From: Candidatus Falkowbacteria bacterium RIFOXYC2_FULL_36_12
GTDB lineage: Bacteria; Patescibacteriota; Patescibacteriia; UBA11705
Assembly (NCBI GenBank): GCA_001778235.1
Contig: MFGJ01000007.1
Coordinates: forward strand, 193,476-257,475
Length of the DNA stretch: 64,000 nt
Direction: 5' to 3'
A program made the translations under genes and the position numbers. Each line of letters begins with the position of its first letter. Position 1 is the stretch's first letter. The notes under the pieces are model-generated. The model worked only from the letters and a program-made list of their open reading frames with translations, ran no database searches and was not told the DNA's origin. Below, one piece after another: positions 3,634 to 61,481 of this stretch.

Positions 3634-4731
3634 CTACTCGCTTACAATCACACTTTCAGCAAACCCAATCAGAATAAAACAAGCAATCATAAAACTACCA
3701 CCATAACTGGTAAAGGGCAAAGAAATTCCTGTAACTGGCAATAAACCCATATTCATACCAACATTGACTAAAAGATGAATAAAAAATAAACAGGCAATAC
3801 CTAGTAGCAAATACATACCAAAATCATCGCGAGCTTTTTTGGCTGATTGGATTAAACGATAAAATATTAGAACCCAAAGAGCCAACATCAAGCTAACGCC
3901 AAGTAAACCAAGCTCTTCGGCAACAACGGCAAAGACAAAATCTGTCTGACTTTCTGGGATAAATTTCAGCTGACTTTGGGAGCCGAACCCTAGTCCACGC
4001 CCCATTAGATTGCCAGAGCCGACCGCAATTATGGCCTGCGTGACATTATAACCACTGCCAAGTGGATCAAGTTCTGGATTGAGAAAAGTCAAAACACGAT
4101 TTTTCTGATAATCAGCAAAAGCAAAAGTCCAAAGCAGAAGAACTATCAAGGCTAACGACACCAGCATGGTTGCAACATAGCGAAGTCTGACTCCAGAGAT
4201 AATCATTAATAAAACCCAAATTCCGAACAAGACTGAAGCAGAACCAACATCAGGTTGCAATAAAACCAAAAAGACTAGGATCATTGTACCAACCAAACTT
4301 ACAACAATATGTTTTGCTTGATTAAACTGGTGAAATCTATTAGCAAAAAAACGAGCCAAGAATAACAGTAAGCCAATCTTGGCAATTTCAACAGGCTGAA
4401 ATCTCAAACCAATAAAATTGAACCAGCCGGTGGTGCCACGAACTGTGCTACCGAAAAATAAAACCAATATTAATAATATAATTGAGCCGAGATAGACATA
4501 TCGGCTATATAGACGGAAAGCTGAAAAATTTATTGCACTCAAAATCAAAATAAATATCAAACCTAACCCAAAATAGACCAATTGTTTCTTGAAATTGGTA
4601 AAATCTGGATTTTCACTACTTAGGCTGACGCTGTAAATGGCAGTTAAACCAATGACAACTAACAATACAACTGAACCAAAAAGAAGAAAATCAAATTTTC
4701 GAAATTTTGCGCGGAGACTACTTAAAAGCAT
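3634..4731 (-). CDS. rodA: SEDS-family peptidoglycan glycosyltransferase (RodA/FtsW-like)
   Basis: 365 aa polytopic membrane protein with a typical FtsW/RodA/SpoVE profile. It is the second SEDS paralogue in the window; the other lies in the dcw cluster. Confidence 0.8.
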   Translation of the reverse strand: MLLSSLRAKFRKFDFLLFGSVVLLVVIGLTAIYSVSLSSENPDFTNFKKQLVYFGLGLIFILILSAINFSAFRLYSRYVYLGSIILLILVLFFGSTVRGTTGWFNFIGLRFQPVEIAKIGLLLFLARFFANRFHQFNQAKHIVVSLVGTMILVFLVLLQPDVGSASVLFGIWVLLMIISGVRLRYVATMLVSLALIVLLLWTFAFADYQKNRVLTFLNPELDPLGSGYNVTQAIIAVGSGNLMGRGLGFGSQSQLKFIPESQTDFVFAVVAEELGLLGVSLMLALWVLIFYRLIQSAKKARDDFGMYLLLGIACLFFIHLLVNVGMNMGLLPVTGISLPFTSYGGSFMIACFILIGFAESVIVSE

Positions 4732-4784
4732 AAAAAATGAGTTACCTCATTTTTTATTATTAATGATATTTTAATTTTTGACAA

Positions 4785-5738
4785 CTAATTTTCAATTTCA
4801 GAATAAATTTGTTCTGCTTCAAAGCCTTTGAAACTATCAGGATTTAAAAAATCAACATCAGGATAAATTTCAATTTTTGATGGAGTGGAAATATTATTAA
4901 AAATACTCAAGGAAATATCGGTTTTTTCACCAGCATCAAGCTTGGCAACGGGATAGACGGTGGCATAGATCAAACGGCTACCCTGAAAAAGTAAAATCTT
5001 ATTGTAAACATCCCAGAAATTATACGCGCCTTTATTTTCAACTGAAAAATTCAGATTGCTAACATTGGCGACATCGGTTTGGCTGGCTGGGATAAATTTA
5101 CTGTCCTGAACTTCGAGCTGATATATTTTTTCCTTTAACTCTGGGTAGTGAGCTTGTTTTTTCCACTTGATACTATCCACCACCAAGGTTACTGGCTGGT
5201 TCGGTGTGATATTTTTGACACCAGTGGCCATGAGATAGTCTATCTGGGCCGGTAAAACAAAGGCAGTATAAACCTCTGTCACCTCACCATTTGATTCAAA
5301 GTGATATTGTATTTCAGGAATATACCAAGAAGTATTTATATTGCTTACTTCAGCAACAATGTTTGACTCGGTATCATTGGCTTTGATGCTAACGGCATAA
5401 TTCACAGTCAGCGGAGATGGCTTTGAGATTTCACTCAAATATTGGTAATTGAGACTTGGGCTGGTCAAAGCCTGATACATGGTATTTTTACTTGGGAGGT
5501 CCAGAAGGTAAAGATTCAAAATAGTATATAAAATAAAAATAGCTAAAATTAAATCAAACAGAGCTAGAACTAAGATAGTAAGTCGGCGGATGAGTAGTTT
5601 GTGAGCCACATACCAAAACCCGACTTTCATTTGATCAGCGGTTAATTCGCCACCTGTAGGGGTAAATTCAGCATGAGGTGGTTTGGGGATATTAGTTTCA
5701 ATTTTATTTGTATTTTGTGTTTGTTTTTGTCCGAACAT
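4785..5738 (-). CDS. Hypothetical bitopic membrane protein encoded next to the rodA-like gene
   Basis: 317 aa with one TM helix after an approximately 50 aa cytoplasmic N-terminus. No PBP SxxK motif was seen. Confidence 0.45.
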   Translation of the reverse strand: MFGQKQTQNTNKIETNIPKPPHAEFTPTGGELTADQMKVGFWYVAHKLLIRRLTILVLALFDLILAIFILYTILNLYLLDLPSKNTMYQALTSPSLNYQYLSEISKPSPLTVNYAVSIKANDTESNIVAEVSNINTSWYIPEIQYHFESNGEVTEVYTAFVLPAQIDYLMATGVKNITPNQPVTLVVDSIKWKKQAHYPELKEKIYQLEVQDSKFIPASQTDVANVSNLNFSVENKGAYNFWDVYNKILLFQGSRLIYATVYPVAKLDAGEKTDISLSIFNNISTPSKIEIYPDVDFLNPDSFKGFEAEQIYSEIEN

Positions 5739-47569: not shown

Positions 47570-48106
47570 TTATTCTAAACTATCTCCAAACTGGGCTTCA
47601 ACTTTGCGGATTTTTGGTGCGATATTGAGAATACAGTATGGTTTAGTAGTATTGTTTTTGTAATAATTCTGATGATAATCTTCAGCTGGATAAAACTTTA
47701 TCAACCGCCTAACTTCAGTAACAATTTTTATTTCATCTTTTAGTTGTTTTGCCTCAATAAAATTTTCAGCTTGTTGTCTCTGATCATCTTCAGTCCAGAA
47801 AATTATTGAGTGATATTGGGGACCGGCATCGTGGCCTTGTTTGTCCATGGAAGTTGGGTCATGCATAGCAAAAAAGATTTCAAACAAATCTTTCAACTCT
47901 AAAATTTCTGGATTGTATTCAATTTTCACAACTTCAATATGACCGGTTTGGCCGGAGCTGACTTGCTGATAAGTCGGATTATCAATTTCACCGCCAGCAT
48001 AGCCAGGAGCAACAGACTCAACACCTTTTATCATTTGAAAAACTGCTTCAGTGCACCAGAAGCAACCTCCGCCAAGTATAATTGTTTTATTTTTCATAGG
48101 GTACAA
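47570..48106 (-). CDS. msrA: Peptide methionine sulfoxide reductase MsrA
   Basis: The GGGCFWC active site. Confidence 0.9.
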   Translation of the reverse strand: MYPMKNKTIILGGGCFWCTEAVFQMIKGVESVAPGYAGGEIDNPTYQQVSSGQTGHIEVVKIEYNPEILELKDLFEIFFAMHDPTSMDKQGHDAGPQYHSIIFWTEDDQRQQAENFIEAKQLKDEIKIVTEVRRLIKFYPAEDYHQNYYKNNTTKPYCILNIAPKIRKVEAQFGDSLE

Positions 48107-48452
48107 ATTTTATGGATAAGGAATTGACGCAATGACGAGTATTTTTTTCAGTGTAATGTTCATTTGTAAAAACATGCCCAAGATGAGCACCACAGTTAGC
48201 GCATTGAATTTCTGTTCTTTGTCCATCTGGGTCAGGCAGATGTTTGACTGCTCCCAAGATTTCCGCATCAAAGCTAGGCCAGCCACAATTGGTCTGGAAT
48301 TTGTGTTCGGATTTATATAGTTCAGCATTGCAACGACGACAGATGTATTTGCCTGTTTGGAAATGTTGATAATATTCACCAGAAAAAGCTGGTTCAGTGG
48401 CTTTGTTTTCTATAATGTTGGCTTCTTCGGGGGTGAGAGGGTTGTATTTCAT
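48087..48452 (-). CDS. msrB: Peptide methionine sulfoxide reductase MsrB
   Basis: Zn-binding CxxC pairs and the RCNAELY...GWPSF...HLGHVF motifs. It overlaps msrA by 20 nt. Confidence 0.9.
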   Translation of the reverse strand: MKYNPLTPEEANIIENKATEPAFSGEYYQHFQTGKYICRRCNAELYKSEHKFQTNCGWPSFDAEILGAVKHLPDPDGQRTEIQCANCGAHLGHVFTNEHYTEKNTRHCVNSLSIKFVPYEK

Positions 48453-48609
48453 ATAGTTAAATCATTATATATAATTGTAGCATGATTTAATAAAAACATT
48501 ATCTTTTCCCTAGTTCTAGCCAGTCATGTTGACAAATATCCTGATACATGATATCATATAGGTAGATAGAAGGTGCCAATCTCCCAACAGAACTCGAAAG
48601 GAGTTCCTC

Positions 48610-49281
48610 ATGGACATCAAGAAGCGCTTCGTTCTTTTCATCATGGTCTTCGCTGTCATGTCGCTGGCGGTCGCCTGCGACACGCCCAGCGGAGATCAGA
48701 ACAACGACACGGTCGCGGGCGCCGACAACGGCACCGTGCCCCCTGACACGGGCAAGACCGACAGCGGTCAGCCCGTGGATTCCAGCCCGCCCGATGACTC
48801 GGGTGGGGAGCTGTGCTCGGGAGAAGAGGAGCTCTACAGCTACGAGATCTGGGATGACCACGCTGGAGACAGGGGTCTCGGAGGGTTCGTCATGCTCGAC
48901 TACTGCGTCTCGCAGGAGCTGTACGAGCTCCTGACCGTGACGCTACCCGGAATCTGGGTTCAGACCGATCCCCCGCTCGACAGAATGGGTCGCGAGTGGG
49001 AGCCGTTCGAGCTCACGGTGAAGCCAGTCGAAGCTGACTTCGAACTGCGGGCCCAGGCTACCTGCCCGAACGCGGACTTCTACCTCGAAGGAGGTGATTT
49101 CAGTCTGTGTATTGAGGATGATATGAGCCTCAACCTCTGCACGGACAGGCAGGCTTGCCAAGGTGTTTTCAACGGCTATGTCGAAGCCGATACAGTACAG
49201 TTTTTCAAGTCAACTGAAATCTCTCTGACTTATGAATTTTGTACAAGTACATGTAACACTCGTTCATACAAGAAGCTGTAA
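48610..49281 (+). CDS. High-GC foreign lipoprotein (acidic, 8 Cys), hypothetical
   Basis: The signal and lipobox (LAVAC) are read directly. GC content jumps sharply at about 48595 and falls at about 49240. It has its own TTGACA-17-TATCAT promoter and an AAAGGAG Shine-Dalgarno, and a terminator at 49289-49325. Confidence 0.6.
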   Translation: MDIKKRFVLFIMVFAVMSLAVACDTPSGDQNNDTVAGADNGTVPPDTGKTDSGQPVDSSPPDDSGGELCSGEEELYSYEIWDDHAGDRGLGGFVMLDYCVSQELYELLTVTLPGIWVQTDPPLDRMGREWEPFELTVKPVEADFELRAQATCPNADFYLEGGDFSLCIEDDMSLNLCTDRQACQGVFNGYVEADTVQFFKSTEISLTYEFCTSTCNTRSYKKL

Positions 49282-49498: not shown

Positions 49499-49936
49499 AT
49501 GCGAAATTTATTATCAAACGAATCAGATTCAAAAAAACTGCAAAGAGCATGGGACTTAGATCAGAAGGCTTTGTTTTTGGCAGACAAAGATATCCAAAAA
49601 AAACTTTGGTCAGAAGCTATAAATATCTGCAAAAAATTACTAAAAAAATATGGGAACAATTTTCCAGATAATTTACAAATAATATACAAAATATTTTTAA
49701 TTTATCTACATCAGAAAAAAATTTTACTCGCAAAAAGATATATTGATAAAGCCTGGAATTTAGATAAAAATAATCCCATAACACTATTTAACTACGGCAA
49801 TTTTTATAGGGCGATAAATAAACCCAAATTGGCAATAAAATATTACGAATCAGCATCAAAGAAAAGTAGTACTAAAATCTTTGGAGAAGAATTAAAAAAA
49901 TATCTAACTTTTATAAATAAAAACAAAAAAGGATAA
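49499..49936 (+). CDS. TPR-repeat protein, apparently leaderless (TTTACA-16-TATAAT ends 6 nt before the ATG)
   Basis: TPR-like helical repeats (AWNLDKNNPITLFNYGNFYRAINKPKLAIKYYE). Confidence 0.5.
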   Translation: MRNLLSNESDSKKLQRAWDLDQKALFLADKDIQKKLWSEAINICKKLLKKYGNNFPDNLQIIYKIFLIYLHQKKILLAKRYIDKAWNLDKNNPITLFNYGNFYRAINKPKLAIKYYESASKKSSTKIFGEELKKYLTFINKNKKG

Positions 49937-50144
49937 CACAACTTTGTATTATCCTTATCTTTTATGACATTTATTACAACTGCTTGTCGGATCCAGTAAA
50001 ATAACCCCTATTTGTACAATCTTCAAACCAAAGGTGATATTGGAAGACTTGGATAAGTTGAAATTACTTAATGAACAAGGTAACAACAATGTTGCATCAG
50101 ACAAGACTTTGTAGTGTTTCTTTTTTTCCTGGATTTGGCTCGCT

Positions 50145-51404
50145 TCATTGCGTTCCCCTTTCCTCTTGTCTAAGGGTGTGCCAGAAAATTGTTTTATACA
50201 TAAACTTCAGAACTTCACAGTAAGGATCTTTATTATCATCCATCAGTTGATATCTATCAATACATCCTCCGCAACATAACCAACCAAAATCACAAAGCCT
50301 ACAATCATCTTGCTTTTGATAATTAAATCTATTTACTGTATCAAATCTATTTTTTATCTCCGAGAGAGGTAGATGACCCACCTCCCCGAGTTTCATTTGA
50401 TGATTATCTACAAAATTTGTGCAAGGATAAATACCAGAAGGAGCAAGACAACAATTATTAATAGCAGCATTACAAGTATGCATCATATGTGGCTCTAACA
50501 CTGTCTGTTTAATTCTGTAAAATTCATTGAAAAATGCTTCTGGGACTTTTCCTTCACACCACAAATCTAGACACTTGCTAAAAACAGAAATCAATTCATC
50601 TTCTAATAAAACATATTTTTCCCAAAAATCACTAGCTCGCCCCCCTCTTTCCAGAAAAACAAAGTGTAGACCCAATAGATTATGCCTTAAACACCAATCT
50701 ATCATATCTTCAACTTCTTTAACATTATACCTTGTCAAAACCATACTTATCCTACATTCAATTCCACAATTCAACATTTCAATTATTTTCCTTTGAACAG
50801 CCGAACTGGCAACCCCTCTTAACATATAATTGACATCATCCTTCAACGAATCAAGTGATACCTGCAAGCTAACCTTATTATTTGCTAAAAATAGTAGTTG
50901 TTCATTGCTAAGGTTAACGAGACCATTCGTTAAAATCCCGAAATTCACTATTCCTCGTATTTTTGATTTTTCAATTATGTCTTGAACTACCCCCCACTCT
51001 AATAGTGGTTCTCCACCAGTAATTGTTATTGACTTAGTATCTTCTTTTGATAATTCGTCTAAAAACCAATCAATATTTTTTGGTGAAACAACTGGATAAT
51101 CAGAATTAGTACAACTATATCGACAATAACTACATTTTAGATTACATTTATTGCTTACATGGATTGATGCTCCTCTTATTGGAGTAGCATATTCGACTTC
51201 ACCATAAAGTGTATCCTGAACATCCTCTAAATAATCCAATATCTCTTCTATGGTTACATTTTCTTTTTTTGCTAAATTTGCTAAATCACTTTCGCGCTCT
51301 TGCCAAATTCTCAAACCTTGTTTATTTGTAAAGTACCAGACTCTTCTGATCGGATCTATAATAGCAACATCATCTTCTCTGAATAAATAAGTTAAATTCA
51401 CCAT
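50145..51404 (-). CDS. Radical SAM / SPASM-domain peptide-modifying enzyme with an N-terminal PqqD-like RRE
   Basis: The N-terminal 80 aa (YFTNKQGLRIWQ...EEILDYLEDV) resemble RRE/PqqD. The radical-SAM core has CNLKCSYC. The C-terminal Cys-rich SPASM is CNAAINNCC...C...CRLCDFGWLCCGGC. A strong Shine-Dalgarno AGAGGAGAAAAG is present. Confidence 0.8.
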   Translation of the reverse strand: MVNLTYLFREDDVAIIDPIRRVWYFTNKQGLRIWQERESDLANLAKKENVTIEEILDYLEDVQDTLYGEVEYATPIRGASIHVSNKCNLKCSYCRYSCTNSDYPVVSPKNIDWFLDELSKEDTKSITITGGEPLLEWGVVQDIIEKSKIRGIVNFGILTNGLVNLSNEQLLFLANNKVSLQVSLDSLKDDVNYMLRGVASSAVQRKIIEMLNCGIECRISMVLTRYNVKEVEDMIDWCLRHNLLGLHFVFLERGGRASDFWEKYVLLEDELISVFSKCLDLWCEGKVPEAFFNEFYRIKQTVLEPHMMHTCNAAINNCCLAPSGIYPCTNFVDNHQMKLGEVGHLPLSEIKNRFDTVNRFNYQKQDDCRLCDFGWLCCGGCIDRYQLMDDNKDPYCEVLKFMYKTIFWHTLRQEERGTQ

Positions 51405-51435
51405 CTTTTCTCCTCTTTTGCGGATTGGATGAATA

Positions 51436-52194
51436 TTATATAATATCTTTCAAGTACTGCATAAACGATTTTTTCTGTTGATGGGCATATTTTATCATAT
51501 ATAATAAATTCATAAATGATGCTAAACTTGACTCGGGTAGATAACAAATTTCTCTATCACCTATTTTTGTGAATCCTTTTTTATTTTTTTGTGGTGATAA
51601 TATTCCATACAATATTTCATTTTGTTGTTCAAATATTATTTCGTATATACATATATATTCTATACTGTTTTTTCTCAACCATTTAGATGCGTCAACAATT
51701 ATTTCATTCACAATTCTATTTATCTTTTTTGGCAGATAATTTTTGTCTAATTGGCACAGATGTTCCGATTCTGTCATTATTTTTTGGACTTTTTTTATTG
51801 GTGCTAATTTTTTCGGTCTAATTAATACCTGTAAACCATTTTTAAGGTATTTATTCATTTTCATTTCCAATTTATCAATATCATAATCTCCTACAATATC
51901 ACATCTAACAACAATAGGATATTCAACAAATGGAACTATTACCCACTCCAAAATTTCTATCTGTTTTTCATCAGACAAAATTTTGGCAATGTATTTTGAT
52001 ATTTTTCTATACTTCGTGTATATTTCTGTCATAAAAAAAGATACGAAAAGTATCCCATAAATTAAATAAACGAATTTTGATATTAATAGAAAGCTTGAGC
52101 ATATCTTCAATATTATATTATCTATTTGGGTATTTTTTGTCAAATGAAACTCCAACAGACTACGCTGATGGTATCTAACATTATTACCAGCCAA
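51436..52194 (-). CDS. Hypothetical protein co-transcribed upstream of the rSAM gene (start may be the internal Met at 52032)
   Basis: Its stop lies 31 nt before the rSAM start. A TTGACA-17-TAATAT promoter lies inside the 5' part of the ORF-track frame, suggesting the shorter version (about 198 aa from MTEIYTKYRK). Confidence 0.45.
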   Translation of the reverse strand: MAGNNVRYHQRSLLEFHLTKNTQIDNIILKICSSFLLISKFVYLIYGILFVSFFMTEIYTKYRKISKYIAKILSDEKQIEILEWVIVPFVEYPIVVRCDIVGDYDIDKLEMKMNKYLKNGLQVLIRPKKLAPIKKVQKIMTESEHLCQLDKNYLPKKINRIVNEIIVDASKWLRKNSIEYICIYEIIFEQQNEILYGILSPQKNKKGFTKIGDREICYLPESSLASFMNLLYMIKYAHQQKKSFMQYLKDII

Positions 52195-52222
52195 GCACCT
52201 CTTTTGGCATCTTGAAGCTTAA

Positions 52223-52414
52223 TTAATCTATTACGAATACCAACACGAAGCCAAAAGGATATAATATACCTTCCAGCTTACGCTGGTGGTTTTGCAAAGG
52301 CATACAGACAAAACAACCAATGAGAAGAGCGCTCCTTGATGAATTATTTAAACAATAGTAGGGAAATTTTATGTCCCTACTTTTTTGACTGCATAATTTT
52401 TCTATATTCTTCAA
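52223..52414 (-). CDS. Possible small Cys-rich peptide (63 aa, TTG start), candidate rSAM substrate; weak
   Basis: MKNIEKLCSQ...YYCLNN...IGCFVCMPLQ contains 4 Cys. No Shine-Dalgarno, a TTG start, and it overlaps the 3' end of the upstream gene. Confidence 0.2.
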   Translation of the reverse strand: MKNIEKLCSQKSRDIKFPYYCLNNSSRSALLIGCFVCMPLQNHQRKLEGILYPFGFVLVFVID

Positions 52415-52844
52415 ATGGGATTAAACCATATTTACTTCTTCGTTTATCTAGATTTTTTTGGTCAATAATTGGTCTGGGGACAACAATACCGAAGTCATCT
52501 TGATAAAATTGTGTACCAAATTTTTGTTTTTTCCCTTGGTTTATTAAAACACGATCAGTCAACATGGCTATTAAATTCTTTGGGGAATTATTTTCCGCCA
52601 TCAATTTCAAACATTTTTCTTGGAAAGAAACATCATGGTCAGCGTGTTGTGCGATTAGCCAGGTCGCTGTCTCGCCTTCAACGCCTACCAGTTTACGGAT
52701 AGGCCAGCCGTATTTAACTATAATCTTCTTTAATTTTTCTGTATTTTCTTTGTCAACAGCTATATCCCATTTTTTGCTCTGCCTCATTTTCTGATCTTTT
52801 GTTTGCATCCGCAGTAATTGTTTTCGGAGTTGTTGGTTCTGCAT
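52377..52844 (-). CDS. Hypothetical protein (155 aa), first gene of the rSAM operon, near-leaderless (TTGACT-16-TATAAT ends 8 nt before the ATG)
   Basis: Promoter at 52853-52880 on the minus strand. No family recognised. Confidence 0.5.
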   Translation of the reverse strand: MQNQQLRKQLLRMQTKDQKMRQSKKWDIAVDKENTEKLKKIIVKYGWPIRKLVGVEGETATWLIAQHADHDVSFQEKCLKLMAENNSPKNLIAMLTDRVLINQGKKQKFGTQFYQDDFGIVVPRPIIDQKNLDKRRSKYGLIPFEEYRKIMQSKK

Positions 52845-53021
52845 ATAATAGTATTATATACAAAAAGGTGTAATAGTCAAAAATTCTTTTTTTATAAATG
52901 ACTCTGCAAAAAACTTTTTTAAGGATGTAATGAATTAAATTCTCTGATGAATTTCATTCATAATGCTCAATCGAAAGAACGCATTCATAATGCGTTCTTT
53001 TTTATATAGAAACTTATTTTT

Positions 53022-56000
53022 TTACGGTTTTATTAAGATTCGTCCAGCAAAGCGGGTCCAAGGCTCTGGGGCTGTTCTTGAACATTCACCTTCATAACAT
53101 CCATCGGTGACCCAGGTAGATTTCTGATGGCCACATGATCCATTGCACCAACCCCAGCTGTCTTTAACCTGAACCTGCGGAATAAATTGGCAGGCTTGTT
53201 CGGTGGCATTCCAGCAATTTGAGATGACGCTACCACTACAGACCCGGTCACCCTGTCCCTCGCAGGTGTATCGATGTTCAAATTTGAAAAATTCTTGAGG
53301 ACTGCAGGCATCGGTTGTATCACCAAAAACATCATATTGAGTACCAAGACATGAAGTGCCGACAGGACAATCTGTTGTTTCGCGACAAGCATAATCTGGA
53401 ATATATTTTCCAGCATTATCAATTTTACAACGCTGGAGCAATTCACCGGCTAATTGCTGGCAAACTGGTTTGTGATTTTTCAATTTACCTTCATCCAAGC
53501 CAACGACTGTGCTACCATCATTCCAATCAACCAGAACTGAAGTTATTGGCATTTGATTGGAGTTGGCCCAAGCATAGAATGTCATCTGGGCAGAATAATC
53601 CTCGCCTGAATAACGAATATCGCCTCGAGATTGAGTACCAATACTGATGGTATTAATATCAGCGGCTGAAGTTTCATTGCCAGTAATCGGATCAGAATTA
53701 CCGGTAAAGACAACTCCGGCAACAATTGGAGGCTGATGTGAATTGGTTAAGGCAAAATCACCAGCGACTGGCATAGAACCAGCAAGATTCACATATTTAT
53801 CATTTTGATATATCCATCGATTATAAACATTGGCAAATAAATTGTTGATGAAGACACTATAGCCTGATGACTTGGTAACATTGTCGCAATTGGCTGTTTC
53901 TCCACCTTCACAACTGATTGGCTTACCGGCTGTATGGGCATTGTTGCCTAAGCCAGCGAAAAATGGTGTACCACCTGGATTTTCAGCTAGATCAGTGCCA
54001 TCATCATTGGTTGAGTCAAATGGGACATAGACAGGATCACCTTCATCTGTACTAACAGCAGAACCATAGGCACTACCAAATGGGTTTAAGGCAGTAGTTG
54101 GAGACAAGCCGTATTCAAGAGATCTGGTAGTCGCGTCCCACAATTTATCATGGGTTGCTCCAGACTCTAGTACAAGGTTATCCCCAGTCTTTAAATATTT
54201 ATAGAAATTGTCAGTATAAGCTTTGTTACTACCAAGAGCATCTTCTTCTACAACCTGAATAACATCCTGACAATATTCACCTTTTAATAAATCAAGGGTA
54301 AAATCCTGCCAACCAATACTGTTGGAATCATCGCAGATAGAAGCCCAGACACCTTTGAACTGATCATTTTCATCAAACAGCACTCTAACACCGAAATAAT
54401 TATCCTCACCCCAACAATGACTGTTTATCTGCCGAGCACTTTGAGCTAATGTATTATAGTTACAATAACCAACTTGGCTCTGGTCTGACTGACAGTACCA
54501 AATAGTTTCTCCCTCAACTTGTTGGTTGGCATTATTGTTGCAAGGGAATTGAGCTGGGTTTAGGTCATAATCTGTAGCTGGATTACACTGAACATTGGAA
54601 CAGTAGTTACCATAATAACTGTCCTTAATACATTTTCCATTGCCACAATCATTATCTTCGGTACAGCCTTGTGATGACCAATTTACACCATGCAAGACAC
54701 CTGCTGGAATAGGCTTAAAAACATCTTCTGCATCACCAAGAACTTCATTGGTAATCAAATCTTTATTTTCTACTCCTCCATCCTTGACAAACATGAGATA
54801 TTTATCATCATCAAATTCACCAAGTTTCTTGCCACTGCCACCATATTGATAGAGGGTGTCACTCTCAAGGAATCGGCTGGAGACAAAATCTTTTTCAGAC
54901 CAAGTAATCTGCCAATAAGTCCATTGACGATATTTGTCTTGATCACGAGTGAAATTGTAAGTCGAGAGATTGCCTGTGACCAAAGTATTTGGAGCTGAAC
55001 CACTTGGATTAATAGACCGAGCTGATTTTTTGAAGAAATTGTAACCTTGAAAGTCTTGGCTGTGACTTTTTTCATACCAGGTTGTAGCTGATTCACCTTC
55101 GCACCAATCTTCGTCTTGACCTTCATTGCAAGCAAAAGAAAAGCCTATTAAATCTTGTTTATAAAGAGGTTCACCACTATAACCAGTGAAATATTCGCGA
55201 TAATCATTGCCACCTGAAGGGATATAATAACGATAATCATCAAAAATCCTGGCTCGATAGGAAATCGGATCTTCGTACGGTGTATCATCTGTTTCTAATC
55301 CGGCTGCACCGAGACAGTATAAACGACCACCATCATTTTCAAAAGCATTTGGATCATAACCAGCTTCATCATACTGGGCATATAGATCCTGAAGACCGGA
55401 CAATGAATCAACAGGATACCAGGACAAACAAGCGGTGTCGCCCTGCCCACTAAGTTTGAGACTGCCATCTCGTTCAAGACAATATCCCTGCATGCCAAGA
55501 TATTTTACCCGATCAATATCCTTCTTCATACACATACCGAGCTGTCCACTGTCACTGCAGTCATATGATTCGCACATTGTACTTCGATCAATAGCATTTC
55601 TGGTAATGTTGTCATCCTCTGTAATCAGACCAGCGCAAGCACATTGCCTATCTGGAATATCCTGACAAAAGCCGACTTTGTCAGTTTCAATATATTGGCT
55701 GATTGAATTTGGAAAATATTTGTCTATATATCCGCCACCAAAACTAACCTTGGTATAAGCACAACCGCAGGCAAAATTTTCATCGCCTTCGCAGGTCAGA
55801 ACATTTTCATAGGCTTGGGCAGTTTGATTGCCTAACTTTTTAACACTGGCATTGAATGGAGAGTCTGCCTGCGGATAAGCTCGGCATTCAGCAGAACTGG
55901 CGCTGATAATATCAGCGGTAGCAACTCCTTCAACGCAAACATCACCAAGACAGCGACGGCCAGCTCCGCAGGCGTCATCTGAAGTACATGTTTGACTAGT

Positions 56001-59000
56001 AAGATGAACCAGACGATAGTCTTTTGGTAGAGCATTGTCACGAGCATTTATATTGTAGGAATTATAAAATTGTAGTGGATATCTATTTGAAATAGAATAA
56101 CCACTGTAATCAAGCTGTCCCCATGAAACTCCCTGCGTTCGGCGGACTTGAGTATAATTGGTTGCATTTAATAATTGATTGGTTGTAAGGAGTGAATCTG
56201 ATGGACCCTCACTGACAAAATGACTACATTGACCAGTATTCTCTGCCTCACCAATAGCATCACAAAGGCCAAGTCCCTGACAGACGAATTTCGAAGTGTT
56301 GGTAACTGGATCAAAAACAGTTTGTCCGCTCTTGCAGTCATACCATTCTGCACATTCGCGATCACGGACAACTTTTATTATACGATTTGAATCCTGAAAA
56401 ATATTAGCTTCATTGGCAGCGTAACACAAGACAGACTCATAAGTACATTGATTAACTCCGACTGGGCCAGCACTGGCACTCGGGGTTGTCCCGAGCAGTG
56501 CGAAAACGCTATTTGTAATTGCAGTTCTTTCTACGGAATTAGTGTCTGGTTGGTTAAAAATAGCTCTGACCTCTGGGCAATAATTTGTGTGCAGAGAGCA
56601 ATCAATATTTAAATTTTCTAGTAGTAATTTCAAACCTTGGAGTGCCTGATCAGTGGAATTGGCAAGAGGAGAAACACCTCGACCACCATCAGCAGAACTG
56701 GCTTCATAGGTTGAAGCAGAATTAAACAAAAGCTGATTAAATCCTTGGGCATTTTTGACAGAAGTGTCATTGAATAATAGACAGCCATCTTTTTCACTAA
56801 CAGTAGAGCAAGACTGGATGTCTTCATTGTTTAAATAATAATAAGCTGAACCTTTGGTTGAGCCACCTTCAACATCAACTGGATCAAGAAAAGCAGTACA
56901 TGAATCATATTTACTCTTGCATTGACCAACCCAGCCATCATAGGTGGCAGTACTTGAATGCAATAAATGACCCGTGCCATCAGCGTAATAATCAAAAGTT
57001 CCAGACGGACAAGAATCTTCAGTGCCTGTGACGAACCAACCTTCATTGCCGTCAGAACCTACCTTGTATTCACAAGTGCGTTCACCCGGCTCCTTGAAAT
57101 AATAAGTGTTGTTGTCAGAAGTAGTAAATTCATCACAGCGATTATCTCTGCCGAGGCATAAGTATTTATCAAGATTATCAAAATCTAATTTGAAAAAGTT
57201 AGTAGCCCAATTATCAGACTCTATTTGATTGTTCTGATCATAATTTGGGACGCCGAGCATGGTACAACCAATACCAAATACTTTACACCTAACATCATCA
57301 GATAGGACTAAGTACATCAAATTGTCTTGATCGGTTGTAAAGGCTCCATTGTCATTATCATAAGATTGACTAAATGGGTTAGTCGAATTTTGGGTATCAA
57401 TAACTGCTTGACAGCCAACTGCTGACTGACGGCAAATATTGCGAAAACCTCGAAGTGTCTGACTGCCGGCAACACTACTTTCAAATTCACGACAACCAAG
57501 CTGGGCTTGTGGCAAATATTGTTTGGACAAGGTCTGATCGCAAGCTGTCGGAGTTGACCAACTATTAGTAATCAAATAATGTGTATCGCTAAGTCTCTTG
57601 ACTTCAATACTATCAAAATAAATCGTGCCACTATTTGATTGGATATTTATTTCATTAACCGCTTCGGTTGGAACAAATATGGCTGTATCATAATGTAAAA
57701 ATTGTGTCTGATCAGCCGGAGTTGACTGGATTTCCACCCTTGACTCAAGGCTTGAGCTACCAAGATTAATATCAGCTCGGGCAGTTGAACCAGGGCTCTC
57801 TGCCCAGAAGGAAACAATATATGATTCACCTGGAATAAGGGAGTTTGATAATCTACGACCGGAGGTTTGGCCAGAAGTGAGCTTCAATGATTTTCCGCCA
57901 TTGATTGAAGACCGTTGACTGATTTCTCCTCCAGTCCAGATTGTACTGGCATCAAAAGTGTCATTTAACAATTGGTCAACATCATTGGCTGTATTACCGC
58001 GGTATTCACGACAGCCAGCATTTGATTTATCACATGACTTGCTAAAATCAGGGTTAGCCCAGAAAACACACTCATTGTCAGCTCGCCATTCACCACCTCG
58101 ACTAGTGCATTGGATCTCTGCATCATATTTAAGTGTTCGGCGGTATGGATGACAATTTTGGCTACATAAAACTAAATTATCTAAAATATAATATGAAACA
58201 TTGCCATTTTTATCATAAAGTTCACGGCATTCAGGAAAATTTATTGGGTCAAAAGTTGACGGACTACATTCACGAGTTATAGGCGACTTCTGGACGACTT
58301 TTGGTACAGAATTATTCATCTCAAACTGATGTGCCTGGAGTTGATAACCAGAAACATCGGTTCCGACCCAAGTATAATAAGTGCCACAACTTGTATCGGT
58401 TTCAGGATTGTCTGATTTTTTGCAAAGTCTAAGATCAGAATAATATTCAGTTCCTTCACCACCTGCATCTAAATCATCTAAATTGGTAAATTCTTCACAA
58501 CTGACTTGATTAGCTGAACAGCTTTCAGCAGTTGATGGCATGAAATATAATGGGAACTGGGTTGAAACAAAATTTGTAGAGGCCTGGGAATAAGTCGCAT
58601 ACCCAACACACTGTGAAGGACAGAGATCTTCTGGTGAAGCAACAGCGGTAACGCTGGTGCCACCATCGGTTGGATTGAAGAGCTGACAGCCAACTTCTTC
58701 AGCGGCACAAAGCTCGGCAAAGTCAGAACATTTTTCTGAATTATTACTTGTTTTATCAAGAATATCTGAAACATTAACTGGGGTATACCAAGTTGTTTCA
58801 CCTTGTCTTATCCCACGACTAAAGGCTGGATCAGTATATAAAGCTGAATCATAACAGCCATAATAATCAGGAGCAATTTTGATAAAATCCAAACCAATAG
58901 TCCCATAATCACTGTAATCATAAACTTCAAATGGACTGACTGCTTCTGAAATTTGGACTTCATCAATGACTGAACTCTCAATGCCTGAAAAACGCATTCC

Positions 59001-61481
59001 AAGATAAGCAACATCTGGAGCTAGACGAACAATCTTGTTGATTCTCTGCCAACCGCCACCCAAATCCTCAATTTGAGTGGTATAAATATAAGAATCATTT
59101 AATGGATTTAAATTTTCTGTGGTTGAAGTAAAGGTAACATCAAAAGTTCCACCCATTCTCCGCATAGAGTAGTTTAACCTAGCAACTGTTGGAATGAGTT
59201 CAACAACTTGACTACCAGAAACAACGGCAGAAAATAAATAATAACGAGAGTATTTCAATGGAGTAATTTGTAAATCTTGAGTGAGATACAATTGACCTGA
59301 AGCTCCAAGTGATACAGAATTTGAACTTTGATAACCTGTATCTGTAACAATAAAATTATCAGCTTCAGAATTGTTCCACCCAGTAATCATATCAGCGGTT
59401 GTATCATTGGCCTCACCAACAAAAAGATCAAAATTACTATTTGGAACCAAGTTAGCACCAAAACGATTGCTAGTATTTATTACCCTAGTACAACCTTCAT
59501 CATTTGGTGAACAACTTTCAGTTTCAATCTGACTGTTCAAGTGGACAATTGAACTACCTGTTTTGTAATAATCTGCGGGATAGTTTTCAGCCCAAACCCG
59601 ATCTGTGGCAGTAGAAGAAGTCAACCAGCTACTATACCCTAGACAACCAACTGAATTAGCATCACAGCTACCAAAATCTACTGTATTTAATAAATAATTA
59701 AATTTTTTACCGTCACGCTGGGTCAGAGTAGTACAAGAATCAGCGACTGCAGGACAAATATCGCCAGTAAATTTCCAAACATTTTCTTCAGCGGCACAAT
59801 AAGCATAATGGCAATTGCCCTCCTCATCAGTGGCAACACAACTTTTTACATCAGCACAATATTCAGCTCGATCTGTAGTATTTGAGGCAAGTAGAGTTGG
59901 TCCGCTGGCAACAGCATCACAACGAGCTTTGGGATATTTGAGAACCCAATCAGGGTCAACTAAATAACGATAAGGATCACAACTGGTAACTGCGGCAGGA
60001 GCATTGAAACAGCCAAGCATAAAACTCAATGTCTTGGCAGGATCGCCATTGGCGGAAACTGCTTGAGCTGCGAGCTCCCAACCAATTGGAATAATTCTGG
60101 CTTTTCGCAATTTTACAAGATTGTAATAACAATAACCATTTAAGTAACAATCATCATCTAAATTGTCTGAATTTTGTGGGCTGATAAAGGCTAAATTGGG
60201 AATTAATTGTTGATTTAGCGCTTCTTGAACGGTTAACGGAGTACCATAATTTGCAGTGCGGACAGCATCAGCAAAATCTTCGGTTATAACACAATTATTT
60301 GGACCTCGATTGATTGTACCAGGATCACAAGTGGTAAACTCTGTGAGCTGGTCAATTTCTCGGGAAGAAGTTTTAAACCCAATTTTTTTTAAGCGAGAAA
60401 TCTGATTCTCGGCTACAGTTTTGTAATCAAAAACACCTTGTGATGGATTGTAAGAATTGGAGACATAGCCTTGGGATATACGGTCAAACAAAGCATTGAC
60501 AAATCGTTGAGAAACAAATGAATTCAAAAAGGTTGAACCAATTGCTTCTGGAATTGATTCAATAACATTCCAAGCTTTTTCTTCTTCAGATGCAGGAGCG
60601 TCTAGGGTTTTCGAAATTTGACTTGATAATAATTCTTTTGAAACATCTGGCGGATTTTGGATGGTTGTTCCTGTAATATCGGTTTTGGGTTTGAAACTTC
60701 CCTCGCCTTCAAGTCGTTCTTCTTTGGCTACCTGCTCTTGTTCTCTCTGGGCAGATTCAGCTAAATCATAAGTATATAAATAAGTACCAATATCACTTTG
60801 TTTTGGTTCAAAACCTTTGACAACTTGTTCTATTGCCACAAAAGAAGCAACTGACGGATTGTCAACATATTTACTCTGTAATTCATCGGCAAAAGCGCTC
60901 CAGCGATCCTTTACTTTGTTCCAAGAACAACGACGATTTTGGACTTGAGCATCAAATGGGTTGCGTTTGGTATTGACCTCAAGAGAACGAATTACTCTAA
61001 GTTTTACATCCAAACTTGGTTCGCAGATGTCAAACTTGTCAGCCCATGGTTGAGCTGTACTCAATTCACTCAAAACATCGGTCAAAACAGCTTCACGAAC
61101 ACGGTCAACATAAGTGCTCCAAGTATCAAGTTGCCAAACAGGTTGTTGACCCCACTCGCCTGTTTCAAGCCAATTAACACTCTGCTCGGCCAAATCCTGC
61201 GCAACTGTAACGGCTAAATTTTTTAAATTTATGGCGGCTGTACGGATCAGAACTTTTTCAATCTTATCTCCAATCGTCTCTTCAAGCTTATTTGTTTTTT
61301 CCGTTATTATACGGTCAGTCTCAATGGCAATATCAACTGAAGTACCTGCAGGGTCAATTACCGGCAATTCAGCAAAGGCAGTTTTGGGTGGAACTATTAT
61401 ATTGGCAAAAATCAGAAAAACAATAACAACCAATAATGTAAATAAAGGTTTAATGTAGCGACAATTTTGAACTTTTTTCAT
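53022..61481 (-). CDS. Giant secreted or surface protein (2819 aa), Cys/Gly/Asn/Ser/Thr-rich with an N-terminal signal anchor
   Basis: An uninterrupted 8.46 kb ORF. N-terminus MKKVQNCRYIKPLFTLLVVIVFLIFANIIVPP. It holds more than 100 Cys, including a recurring module C-T-[SE]-D-[DN]-x-C-G-x-G-[RK]-C. Confidence 0.8.
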   Translation of the reverse strand: MKKVQNCRYIKPLFTLLVVIVFLIFANIIVPPKTAFAELPVIDPAGTSVDIAIETDRIITEKTNKLEETIGDKIEKVLIRTAAINLKNLAVTVAQDLAEQSVNWLETGEWGQQPVWQLDTWSTYVDRVREAVLTDVLSELSTAQPWADKFDICEPSLDVKLRVIRSLEVNTKRNPFDAQVQNRRCSWNKVKDRWSAFADELQSKYVDNPSVASFVAIEQVVKGFEPKQSDIGTYLYTYDLAESAQREQEQVAKEERLEGEGSFKPKTDITGTTIQNPPDVSKELLSSQISKTLDAPASEEEKAWNVIESIPEAIGSTFLNSFVSQRFVNALFDRISQGYVSNSYNPSQGVFDYKTVAENQISRLKKIGFKTSSREIDQLTEFTTCDPGTINRGPNNCVITEDFADAVRTANYGTPLTVQEALNQQLIPNLAFISPQNSDNLDDDCYLNGYCYYNLVKLRKARIIPIGWELAAQAVSANGDPAKTLSFMLGCFNAPAAVTSCDPYRYLVDPDWVLKYPKARCDAVASGPTLLASNTTDRAEYCADVKSCVATDEEGNCHYAYCAAEENVWKFTGDICPAVADSCTTLTQRDGKKFNYLLNTVDFGSCDANSVGCLGYSSWLTSSTATDRVWAENYPADYYKTGSSIVHLNSQIETESCSPNDEGCTRVINTSNRFGANLVPNSNFDLFVGEANDTTADMITGWNNSEADNFIVTDTGYQSSNSVSLGASGQLYLTQDLQITPLKYSRYYLFSAVVSGSQVVELIPTVARLNYSMRRMGGTFDVTFTSTTENLNPLNDSYIYTTQIEDLGGGWQRINKIVRLAPDVAYLGMRFSGIESSVIDEVQISEAVSPFEVYDYSDYGTIGLDFIKIAPDYYGCYDSALYTDPAFSRGIRQGETTWYTPVNVSDILDKTSNNSEKCSDFAELCAAEEVGCQLFNPTDGGTSVTAVASPEDLCPSQCVGYATYSQASTNFVSTQFPLYFMPSTAESCSANQVSCEEFTNLDDLDAGGEGTEYYSDLRLCKKSDNPETDTSCGTYYTWVGTDVSGYQLQAHQFEMNNSVPKVVQKSPITRECSPSTFDPINFPECRELYDKNGNVSYYILDNLVLCSQNCHPYRRTLKYDAEIQCTSRGGEWRADNECVFWANPDFSKSCDKSNAGCREYRGNTANDVDQLLNDTFDASTIWTGGEISQRSSINGGKSLKLTSGQTSGRRLSNSLIPGESYIVSFWAESPGSTARADINLGSSSLESRVEIQSTPADQTQFLHYDTAIFVPTEAVNEINIQSNSGTIYFDSIEVKRLSDTHYLITNSWSTPTACDQTLSKQYLPQAQLGCREFESSVAGSQTLRGFRNICRQSAVGCQAVIDTQNSTNPFSQSYDNDNGAFTTDQDNLMYLVLSDDVRCKVFGIGCTMLGVPNYDQNNQIESDNWATNFFKLDFDNLDKYLCLGRDNRCDEFTTSDNNTYYFKEPGERTCEYKVGSDGNEGWFVTGTEDSCPSGTFDYYADGTGHLLHSSTATYDGWVGQCKSKYDSCTAFLDPVDVEGGSTKGSAYYYLNNEDIQSCSTVSEKDGCLLFNDTSVKNAQGFNQLLFNSASTYEASSADGGRGVSPLANSTDQALQGLKLLLENLNIDCSLHTNYCPEVRAIFNQPDTNSVERTAITNSVFALLGTTPSASAGPVGVNQCTYESVLCYAANEANIFQDSNRIIKVVRDRECAEWYDCKSGQTVFDPVTNTSKFVCQGLGLCDAIGEAENTGQCSHFVSEGPSDSLLTTNQLLNATNYTQVRRTQGVSWGQLDYSGYSISNRYPLQFYNSYNINARDNALPKDYRLVHLTSQTCTSDDACGAGRRCLGDVCVEGVATADIISASSAECRAYPQADSPFNASVKKLGNQTAQAYENVLTCEGDENFACGCAYTKVSFGGGYIDKYFPNSISQYIETDKVGFCQDIPDRQCACAGLITEDDNITRNAIDRSTMCESYDCSDSGQLGMCMKKDIDRVKYLGMQGYCLERDGSLKLSGQGDTACLSWYPVDSLSGLQDLYAQYDEAGYDPNAFENDGGRLYCLGAAGLETDDTPYEDPISYRARIFDDYRYYIPSGGNDYREYFTGYSGEPLYKQDLIGFSFACNEGQDEDWCEGESATTWYEKSHSQDFQGYNFFKKSARSINPSGSAPNTLVTGNLSTYNFTRDQDKYRQWTYWQITWSEKDFVSSRFLESDTLYQYGGSGKKLGEFDDDKYLMFVKDGGVENKDLITNEVLGDAEDVFKPIPAGVLHGVNWSSQGCTEDNDCGNGKCIKDSYYGNYCSNVQCNPATDYDLNPAQFPCNNNANQQVEGETIWYCQSDQSQVGYCNYNTLAQSARQINSHCWGEDNYFGVRVLFDENDQFKGVWASICDDSNSIGWQDFTLDLLKGEYCQDVIQVVEEDALGSNKAYTDNFYKYLKTGDNLVLESGATHDKLWDATTRSLEYGLSPTTALNPFGSAYGSAVSTDEGDPVYVPFDSTNDDGTDLAENPGGTPFFAGLGNNAHTAGKPISCEGGETANCDNVTKSSGYSVFINNLFANVYNRWIYQNDKYVNLAGSMPVAGDFALTNSHQPPIVAGVVFTGNSDPITGNETSAADINTISIGTQSRGDIRYSGEDYSAQMTFYAWANSNQMPITSVLVDWNDGSTVVGLDEGKLKNHKPVCQQLAGELLQRCKIDNAGKYIPDYACRETTDCPVGTSCLGTQYDVFGDTTDACSPQEFFKFEHRYTCEGQGDRVCSGSVISNCWNATEQACQFIPQVQVKDSWGWCNGSCGHQKSTWVTDGCYEGECSRTAPEPWTRFAGRILIKP

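Follow-up and report, generated by a model that had tools for sequence, protein, structure and literature searches.

We describe a candidate peptide-maturation cluster in a 64,000-nt stretch of contig MFGJ01000007.1 from Candidatus Falkowbacteria bacterium RIFOXYC2_FULL_36_12 (the whole stretch is called the window below, and its own numbering is used for all of its coordinates). We put at about 0.8 the probability that the system is a cluster of the type that makes RiPPs (peptides of ribosomal origin that are modified after translation) and that its precursor is a 26-aa open reading frame (ORF) at 50068-50148, next to the gene of a radical S-adenosylmethionine (rSAM) enzyme with a SPASM region. 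The core of the cluster would consist of three genes, which encode a partner protein of 198 aa, the rSAM/SPASM maturase of 419 aa and the 26-aa precursor. The features of this core are as follows.

51436-52032, minus strand: gene of the partner protein, 198 aa, orphan family, delimited by homologues and by the public annotation

50145-51404, minus strand: gene of the rSAM/SPASM peptide maturase, 419 aa, with a Shine-Dalgarno sequence AGGAG 7 nt 5' of its start

51195-51404, minus strand: N-terminal domain of the maturase (residues 1-70), a presumed leader-recognition element, delimited by the topology of an AlphaFold2 model

51123-51146, minus strand: CxxxCxxC motif of the maturase (C87-x3-C91-x2-C94), ligands of the SAM-cleaving [4Fe-4S] cluster, from the family alignment

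50217-50474, minus strand: SPASM region of the maturase with seven Cys (C311, C328, C368, C371, C377, C381 and C396), from the family alignment

50068-50148, minus strand: precursor peptide gene, 26 aa, MKRAKSRKKRNTTKSCLMQHCCYLVH, from a six-frame scan and homologues

49929-49956, minus strand: intrinsic-terminator-like hairpin with a 12-bp stem and a T run, 112 nt 3' of the peptide stop

The original prediction for this DNA had placed the enzyme in a RiPP-type cluster as a peptide maturase, and the homologous short peptides that we found beside its relatives bear this out. It had also reported no obvious precursor, suggesting that the substrate may be new, encoded in trans or found among the larger proteins, and had made the rSAM gene the last of its operon. 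Both statements have to be given up, since a conserved cis-encoded ORF of 26 aa follows directly downstream and overlaps the stop codon of the rSAM gene. The ATG of this ORF, at 50148, overlaps the maturase TGA (50147-50145) in the sequence caATGAag, and a Shine-Dalgarno-like purine-rich sequence, GAGGAAAGGGG, ends 6 nt 5' of it. The stop codon of the peptide occupies 50068-50070, and the terminator-like hairpin also stands at the end of a convergent gene for a tetratricopeptide repeat (TPR) protein. The peptide has three Cys in its 26 residues and ends in HC-x-Y-L-V-H-stop, like two peptides from Lachnospiraceae.

The 12 peptides found at other loci were combined into a profile, which was searched against all 3001 six-frame segments of the window; the segment at 50068-50169 (minus strand) was matched with an E-value of 1.7e-5, and the next match had an E-value of 3.2. 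Even a profile of the four Lachnospiraceae peptides alone ranked the window peptide first (E-value 0.003). The search for further copies of the precursor covered the entire 64 kb, and no further ORF resembling a precursor turned up near the cluster in a scan for the motif CxxCx1-3C. The exact sequences of the window peptide and of its orthologue in the related locus L001 are absent from a collection of 15 billion proteins, so the two had not been called as genes there. The curated libraries NCBIfam and Pfam gave no match to the peptides, and Rfam gave none to positions 49800-53200.

Other small ORFs were considered as precursors and rejected. The 63-aa Cys-rich ORF with a TTG start (52223-52414), which the original prediction had listed as a possible gene, overlaps the 3' end of the gene for a DUF6624 protein (see below), has no counterpart in related loci and matches no Pfam family. 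The 50-aa ORF that the same source had read on the opposite strand at 50050-50202 (the ORF is at 50071-50223) is antisense to the peptide gene, and the same frame has four stops in L001; the weak similarity of this ORF to L001 mirrors the conservation of the sense strand. A 49-aa ORF with a TTG start in another frame (49955-50104, minus strand) is not conserved.

Peptides homologous to the window peptide make a family of 13 distinct sequences, the window included, and a member was found beside every maturase relative for which flanks were available. The L001 orthologue, MRRAHSKKSKKTSNTCLSCHCGGFIH, has 26 codons, the same length as the window peptide, and is also located at the 3' end of the maturase gene: it lies 2 nt after the stop of a 46%-identical maturase, is preceded by a Shine-Dalgarno sequence, GAAGGAGGTGA, and is followed by a hairpin. 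Five locus types (L005/L006, L012, L020/L021, L022 and L023) have peptides of 49-54 aa 3' of the partner gene, the one in L005/L006 ending in ...LRRAKSGTPQPIRNCGSCHCELFVH. The L024 peptide, P0149, lies downstream of a partner-gene fragment, and P0148, a peptide known from the protein database, is on a contig of 1,002 nt. Peptides of 29-31 aa lie 5' of the rSAM gene in L008, L009, L017 and L018; the short ORFs beside the maturases P0005 and P0006 are MFKKFVKKANSSVKSMAIVCAAHCDYFVH and (M)LEQYVKKANSFKVRKTIACVVCTHCTYFAH.

All 13 peptides share a C-terminus of the form C-x2-3-H-C-x-x-[F/L]-[V/I/A]-H-stop, with the core ending exactly at the stop codon, and a leader motif, [K/R][K/R]-A-[K/N/H]-S, placed 8-9 residues before the first Cys. 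When 11 of the peptides were aligned, the start Met, C16, H20, C21 and H26 (window numbering) were invariant and S6 and F24 nearly so, with F or L at -2 and V, I or A at -1. Counted from the C-terminus, the invariant Cys are those at -10/-9 and -5 and the invariant His those at -6 and at the very end, and all of them recur in the two peptides found later. Searched against 5.8 billion proteins, the profile of the 11 peptides returned only five (E-values from 1e-9 to 2e-7): three already known beside maturases of the family, P0149 near the partner-gene fragment, and P0148. By this comparison, the 26-aa ORF is a conserved gene that always accompanies the maturase family and carries two conserved blocks. 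A short precursor beside a modifying enzyme, with the two co-varying, is one of the marks of a RiPP cluster, and it is found here.

A third protein family, of ~235-260 aa, is encoded near the peptide gene in L020 (5895-6608), L023 (5919-6701) and L024 (2823-3605, minus strand). The two members that were scanned (L020 and L023) have no Pfam match, and the family is absent from the window. In L024 a second radical SAM protein of 466 aa (3691-5091, minus strand; BLAST E < 1e-5 to the family) is encoded 3 kb from the precursor gene.

The 419-aa protein matches the Pfam model Radical_SAM (PF04055) with 72 bits (E-value 8.4e-20, cutoff 29.5), which places it in the superfamily. In an alignment of the window enzyme with its five closest homologues ten Cys are invariant. 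Three of them (C87, C91 and C94) make up the CxxxCxxC motif, which aligns with the same motif of CteB, MoaA and SkfB; the other seven belong to the SPASM region, which aligns with the SPASM regions of CteB and of the anaerobic sulfatase maturase (anSME). The layout of the latter region, C311-x12-G-x3-C328 ... C368-x2-C371-x5-C377-x3-C381 ... C396, puts the enzyme in the SPASM subgroup; the reference pattern is Cx9-15Gx4C ... Cx2Cx5Cx3C ... C, and the spacing from G to C is 3 here, not 4. Seven such Cys imply two predicted auxiliary Fe-S clusters. The Pfam SPASM model PF13186 gave no match to the protein at E <= 0.1. The architecture that the original prediction had given, an rSAM/SPASM enzyme of 419 aa with a CxxxCxxC motif and a C-terminal Cys cluster, is thus confirmed.

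None of the curated NCBIfam cutoffs was passed by the maturase or by its relatives. The top matches of the maturase, to DynA (NF041298) and PapB (NF047865), scored 93 bits each against cutoffs of 450 and 340, respectively, and were followed by NirJ2, MoaA, MftC, SCIFF/CteB and anSME. With 73.1 bits for MftC (TIGR03962, cutoff 265), 71.2 bits for SCIFF/CteB (TIGR03974, cutoff 425) and 56.3 bits for anSME (TIGR03942, cutoff 349), the enzyme belongs to none of these families. Only five close relatives were found among 5.8 billion proteins, namely P0002 (46% identical to the window enzyme), P0003 (32%), P0004 (31%), P0005 (27%) and P0006 (25%); the public names in the clade of P0005 and P0006 are Lachnospiraceae, Acetatifactor and Clostridium. 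In the database the 419-aa protein is labelled 'hypothetical protein' of Candidatus Falkowbacteria bacterium RIFOXYD2_FULL_35_9, and many of its homologues bear the label 'mycofactocin radical SAM maturase' of the Joint Genome Institute (JGI).

By sequence, the best relative with a solved structure is CteB (PDB 5WGG, E-value 3e-17). The AlphaFold2 model of the maturase (mean predicted local distance difference test score, pLDDT, 81.7) has a fold that matches rSAM structures; its best Foldseek match is again CteB (E-value 4e-16), aligned over the full length in more than 450 columns, and the next matches are anSME, where the alignment is confined to the core and the SPASM region, SuiB and SkfB. 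For the core together with the SPASM region, the superposition on anSME (TM 0.64-0.73) is slightly better than that on CteB. Six positions in proximity to the catalytic site have been defined on CteB in PMC10288494: F112, F152, T186, S210, H363 and Q364. In our sequence alignment with CteB, the only enzyme with which this profile was compared, they map to R95, T129, L158, S183, T329 and N330 of the maturase, identical at one position and different at five. Because just one of the six residues is common to both enzymes, the chemistry of the maturase cannot be carried over from CteB.

The PqqD-like RiPP recognition element (RRE) that the original prediction had placed at the N-terminus fared differently in structure and in sequence. 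An RRE is a winged-helix domain of ~80-90 aa, in which a three-stranded sheet is followed by three helices. The N-terminus of the AlphaFold2 model has this predicted topology, with strands at residues 5-9, 12-17 and 22-27 and helices at 28-35, 41-48 and 52-67 (pLDDT 83-97), and the Foldseek alignments to the RRE-bearing enzymes CteB and SuiB run over the full length in more than 440 columns. The NCBIfam alignments to StsB and CbpB start at residues 4-13 of the maturase. No sequence model followed: the PqqD/RRE model PF05402 matched neither the whole maturase nor any N-terminal domain in a set of ten from the family, and a profile of the family's N-terminal domains, searched against PDB sequences, found nothing below an E-value of 0.08 and no RRE, the top match being a MarR-type winged helix. 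Since sequence models do not back an RRE, we speak of a recognition-type domain on the grounds of fold prediction, and presume from the predicted topology and the full-length structural alignments that the domain is a recognition element.

The partner gene is part of a 252-aa ORF (51436-52194, minus strand). The homologues in the loci of the maturase relatives, of ~209-210 aa, align with it from Met55 (ATG at 52032), so the real product has 198 aa, in agreement with the public annotation; the protein of approximately 200-250 aa in the original prediction is accordingly a real one. The gene of P0002 lies downstream of a partner homologue of 209 aa, and the genes of P0003 and P0004 lie upstream of homologues of ~210 aa. 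Partner homologues adjoin the maturase gene in seven locus types (L001, L005, L007, L012, L020, L022 and L023). When 1.84 billion representative proteins were searched exhaustively with the partner profile, only 19 relatives came up at E <= 0.001. Pfam and NCBIfam have no match to the window protein or to any of the relatives, the partner profile found nothing among PDB sequences, and the AlphaFold2 model of the partner (pLDDT 88.4) had no match at E < 0.001 among the folds of PDB and BFVD. The only invariant residues are P34, R43, R72 and E131; the family has no conserved Cys and no protease-type triad.

These parts can be put together into a possible mechanism. The precursor would be translated by coupling to the maturase gene via the ATGA overlap, and the N-terminal recognition-type domain of the maturase would bind the leader motif K-R-A-K-S; the conservation of this motif and its fixed distance from the core lend such binding indirect support. 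The radical SAM cluster would cleave SAM to give the 5'-deoxyadenosyl radical, which would abstract a hydrogen atom from a residue in the 11-residue core, and one or both of the invariant Cys thiols (C16 and C21) could then be joined to core carbon as thioether cross-links, in the manner of the CteB-type synthases of sactipeptides and ranthipeptides. For thioether formation as the specific chemistry, which is proposed by analogy and is the likeliest of those considered, we see roughly even chances. The SPASM region offers seven Cys ligands, not eight, which suggests that the first auxiliary cluster has one coordination site open; this site may take the substrate thiolate, and the first auxiliary cluster of CteB is said to keep an open site for that purpose. 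The invariant His residues, at -6 and at the C-terminus, might serve as acceptor or positioning residues, or as metal ligands of the product. The partner would most likely be a family-specific accessory that binds or presents the peptide, or else an enzyme that performs a second step.

The fate of the product may differ between loci. No exporter or leader protease genes were found in the window-type loci, so the product there may act inside the cell or leave it by general routes. In the loci of P0005 and P0006 a short ORF is followed by the rSAM gene and by an ATP-binding cassette (ABC) exporter gene, and one Lachnospiraceae-type subgroup has genes for AgrB, a histidine kinase, a LytTR regulator and a helix-turn-helix protein upstream. 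The ABC exporter and the Agr-type genes point to a secreted signal or a bacteriocin as the Lachnospiraceae product.

Several points weigh against the RiPP reading or parts of it. A leader of 15 residues is unusually short, and expression of the 26-aa precursor is a prediction. The assignment of the recognition domain is drawn from a predicted structure. All NCBIfam matches of the maturase are far under their cutoffs, and the top ones mix chemistries (DynA, PapB, NirJ2, MoaA and MftC). Thioether formation is an analogy to CteB, an enzyme with about 20% identity. The role of the partner has no support from homology of any kind, and the partner does not always keep company with the maturase. The partner P0123 of L010 (8001-8618; also in L011), which matches the profile with an E-value of 1e-20, has neither a maturase nor a peptide within 8 kb of it; the gene after it encodes a 403-aa protein without family match, which was considered as a maturase and ruled out, not being an rSAM enzyme. 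In L023 (4639-5816) the partner gene and the gene of the 50-aa precursor are intact downstream of a mere maturase remnant, a frameshifted C-terminal part (residues about 324-425) that reflects either gene decay or an assembly error. These two cases show that the partner can exist apart from the maturase.

Among known systems the closest parallel is with CteB/SCIFF (TIGR03974; PDB 5WGG and 5WHY), which has an N-terminal recognition domain (predicted in our case), an rSAM core and a seven-Cys SPASM region, and in which a short Cys-containing precursor is encoded beside the enzyme. The differences are that the maturase is only ~20% identical to CteB, with five of the six proximity residues changed in the comparison given above, and that the window-type loci have the orphan partner. 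A SCIFF precursor has six Cys in about 45 residues, which the window peptide does not; the peptides of this family have two or three Cys in an 11-residue core at the C-terminus, together with two invariant His. PapB (a ranthipeptide maturase) and DynA (of dynobactin) are likewise peptide maturases with SPASM, and their alignments with our enzyme span the rSAM and SPASM parts. These alignments begin at residues 80-85 and omit the N-terminal domain, and the scores reach roughly one quarter of the cutoffs. The precursors are unrelated to the window peptide: PapA has CxxxD/E repeats, and the dynobactin precursor has a Trp/His/Tyr core.

The Lachnospiraceae clusters (L008, L009, L017 and L018), uncharacterized in the libraries and literature searched, also resemble the window. 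Their maturases are homologous over the full length at 25-27% identity, and their precursors, e.g. MFSKYVKKSNSTVKNGFVGCAAHCDYFVH, are homologous as well, with the same leader and C-terminal motifs. Unlike the window-type loci, they have the peptide gene upstream, an ABC exporter and no partner, and some of them also have the genes for AgrB, a histidine kinase and a LytTR regulator.

The same three genes could serve another chemistry. An MftC-like enzyme would act on the C-terminal [V/I/A]-His, by oxidative decarboxylation with a C-C or C-N cross-link, and it would make, from the peptide, a redox or metal-binding cofactor for use inside the cell instead of a secreted thioether peptide. Mycofactocin (MftA/MftB/MftC) does share with the window an rSAM/SPASM enzyme, a peptide of ~30 aa with conserved residues at the extreme C-terminus and a Cys a few residues upstream, a small accessory protein and the lack of a dedicated exporter. 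Moreover, 13 of 13 peptides end at an invariant His preceded by a hydrophobic residue, the invariant Cys/His/Cys/His set resembles a metal site, no exporter or protease is seen in window-type loci, and MftC is among the NCBIfam matches, as well as in the JGI label of many homologues. The MftC score of 73, against its cutoff of 265, is not the top match, however. MftC acts on the Val-Tyr end of MftA with MftB as a separate RRE protein, whereas in the window maturase the recognition-type domain is part of the enzyme, as in CteB and SuiB, and the partner has no RRE-like topology in its predicted model. The cross-linked Val of MftA is not known to vary, whereas the penultimate residue does vary here (V, I or A), and the peptides of this family end in [F/L]-[V/I/A]-His, not Gly-Val-Tyr. 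The neighbours examined include no MftD-, MftE- or MftF-like genes, and the ABC exporters and Agr-type genes of Lachnospiraceae fit a secreted product. We regard MftC-like chemistry as doubtful, though the terminal His and the Cys/His/Cys/His set leave some room for it or for a metal-binding product, above all in the window-type loci.

It is very unlikely that there is no cis-encoded precursor and that the substrate is trans-encoded or a larger protein, such as the 198-aa partner or a 2819-aa Cys-rich protein encoded next to the cluster. rSAM/SPASM enzymes that act on full-size proteins exist (anSME and QhpD), the linkage between partner and maturase is tight, and L020 too has a homologue of the giant protein encoded near its maturase gene. 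Yet a short peptide is present in every locus with flanks, including those of clades that have neither the partner nor the giant protein; the partner has no conserved Cys; and a fused recognition-type domain, combined with a conserved leader motif whose spacing is fixed, is what marks a peptide substrate guided by its leader.

It is hardly credible that the enzyme is something other than a peptide maturase, being anSME-like or of a cofactor type (NirJ, AhbD or MoaA-like) with a small ORF that is there by chance or for regulation: NirJ2, MoaA and anSME do occur among the NCBIfam and PDB matches, and the superposition on anSME is the slightly better one, but the scores are 4- to 6-fold under the family cutoffs, the maturase differs from anSME in having seven conserved Cys (not eight) and an N-terminal domain, the small ORF keeps its sequence, length, position and terminal motif beside maturases with identities of only 25-46%, its profile gives significant matches against 5.8 billion proteins, and no sulfatase or heme/molybdopterin pathway genes occur among the neighbours scanned. 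We know of no N-terminal domain of the CteB/SuiB kind in anSME, NirJ, AhbD or MoaA-like enzymes. Kinship with sulfatase maturases or cofactor rSAM enzymes, which the original prediction had raised as the outcome that would speak against it, did not emerge; the nearest outside relatives are in clusters with peptides, ABC exporters and AgrB.

The RiPP-type cluster with the 26-aa precursor is accordingly the reading that we keep. The locus probably works like a CteB/SCIFF-type or another rSAM/SPASM RiPP system, yet it is outside every curated maturase family: Pfam and NCBIfam have no model for the precursor family, the partner family or the maturase clade. In the literature on rSAM RiPPs of Patescibacteria (the Candidate Phyla Radiation, CPR), on AgrB-linked rSAM clusters and on the peptide motif we found no description of the family. 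Our verdict, as far as gene comparison carries it, is that the locus represents a new, unannotated family of a known kind of peptide-maturation cluster.

Upstream of the partner gene the following features were identified.

52853-52880, minus strand: promoter-like site TTGACT-16-TATAAT, with 11 of 12 consensus matches, the best in 49800-53200

52377-52844, minus strand: gene of a DUF6624 protein, 155 aa (PF20329, E-value 3.5e-21, 75.9 bits, cutoff 27)

52115-52143, minus strand: second promoter-like site TTGACA-17-TAATAT, with 10 of 12 consensus matches, 83 nt upstream of the partner ATG

The original prediction had proposed an operon of four genes driven by a near-leaderless promoter, and this picture holds in part. 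The 155-aa protein is real, being the DUF6624 protein, as is the partner. Between the end of the -10 element of the first site and the ATG of the DUF6624 gene there are 8 nt, so the DUF6624 mRNA would be leaderless or nearly so; however, promoter-like sites in this AT-rich region are no commoner than in shuffled sequences (18 vs 17.4). The second promoter-like site and a gap of 345 nt separate the DUF6624 gene from the partner gene, so that a single operon is possible only, and the 63-aa ORF that was to be its remaining member is not conserved.

The DUF6624 protein of the window is 39% identical to one encoded upstream of the L001 module; no other related locus has the gene, which is present only in the window and L001. 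A 2026 survey (PMC13097080) reports the co-occurrence of DUF6624 with several groups of graspetides. We consider it an optional upstream neighbour of the maturase module, of uncertain relevance. In L001 (5014-6315) a 40-aa acidic ORF, MENIEKKSYESSIEREENLIESASEADLRGMVDISSQKVA, a RimK-like ATP-grasp gene and the DUF6624 gene lie just upstream of the orthologous module. They look like a separate graspetide-type module, which may explain the presence of DUF6624 near the maturase; the DUF6624 gene of the window has no adjacent ATP-grasp gene.

Directly upstream of the cluster (53022-61481, minus strand) is the gene of the 2819-aa Cys-rich protein, which has an N-terminal hydrophobic segment; its only family match, to CBM_4_9, is weak and below the cutoff. 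A hairpin with a T run was read from the sequence after the stop of this gene, and the terminator scan did not list it. In L020/L021 the homologue of this protein is encoded ~2.4 kb upstream of the maturase gene. In L005 (7565-7916) a 45-nt direct repeat, whose two copies are 84% identical, occurs with an inverted partial copy in the 460 nt of intergenic sequence upstream of the maturase gene.

On the other side of the cluster, the convergent TPR protein of 145 aa (49499-49936, plus strand) has the terminator hairpin in common with it; a TPR protein is also encoded upstream of the Lachnospiraceae-type cluster in L017 (75-812), probably by coincidence. Further on there is a gene for a 223-aa Cys-rich putative lipoprotein (48610-49281, plus strand), whose signal peptide ends in LAVAC and which has no family match; the G+C content of this stretch is 0.41 vs about 0.35, and a long antisense ORF (48499-48861) overlaps it. 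Genes for MsrB (SelR) and MsrA (PMSR), overlapping by 20 nt, are located ~2 kb from the cluster (47570-48452, minus strand).

The genomes of CPR bacteria are tiny, and their specialized metabolites are thought to be few. If our reading is right, one of them, a Candidatus Falkowbacteria bacterium, has a complete, minimal and conserved peptide-maturation module. A more speculative extension, which we consider improbable, is that in the CPR-type loci the maturase and the partner turn the Cys/His-rich C-terminal undecapeptide into an intracellular metal-binding or redox cofactor, similar to mycofactocin or pyrroloquinoline quinone (PQQ). Were this so, genome-reduced episymbionts would have a home-made small cofactor, the module would represent a new RiPP class with a Cys/His-based warhead, and with the partner there would be a new class of enzyme or chaperone in RiPP biosynthesis.

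The partner family, of ~200 aa, has a confident predicted fold and no known relatives. The precursor was missed by public gene calls, and with it an orphan radical SAM enzyme becomes a testable enzyme-substrate pair. A practical lesson is that 'missing' RiPP precursors hide in ORFs of fewer than 30 codons that overlap a stop codon. The peptides themselves make a new precursor family with a strict terminal motif, C..HC..ΦΦH, which is common to CPR bacteria and gut Lachnospiraceae, and whose Lachnospiraceae members are wired to Agr-type quorum-sensing genes and exporters.

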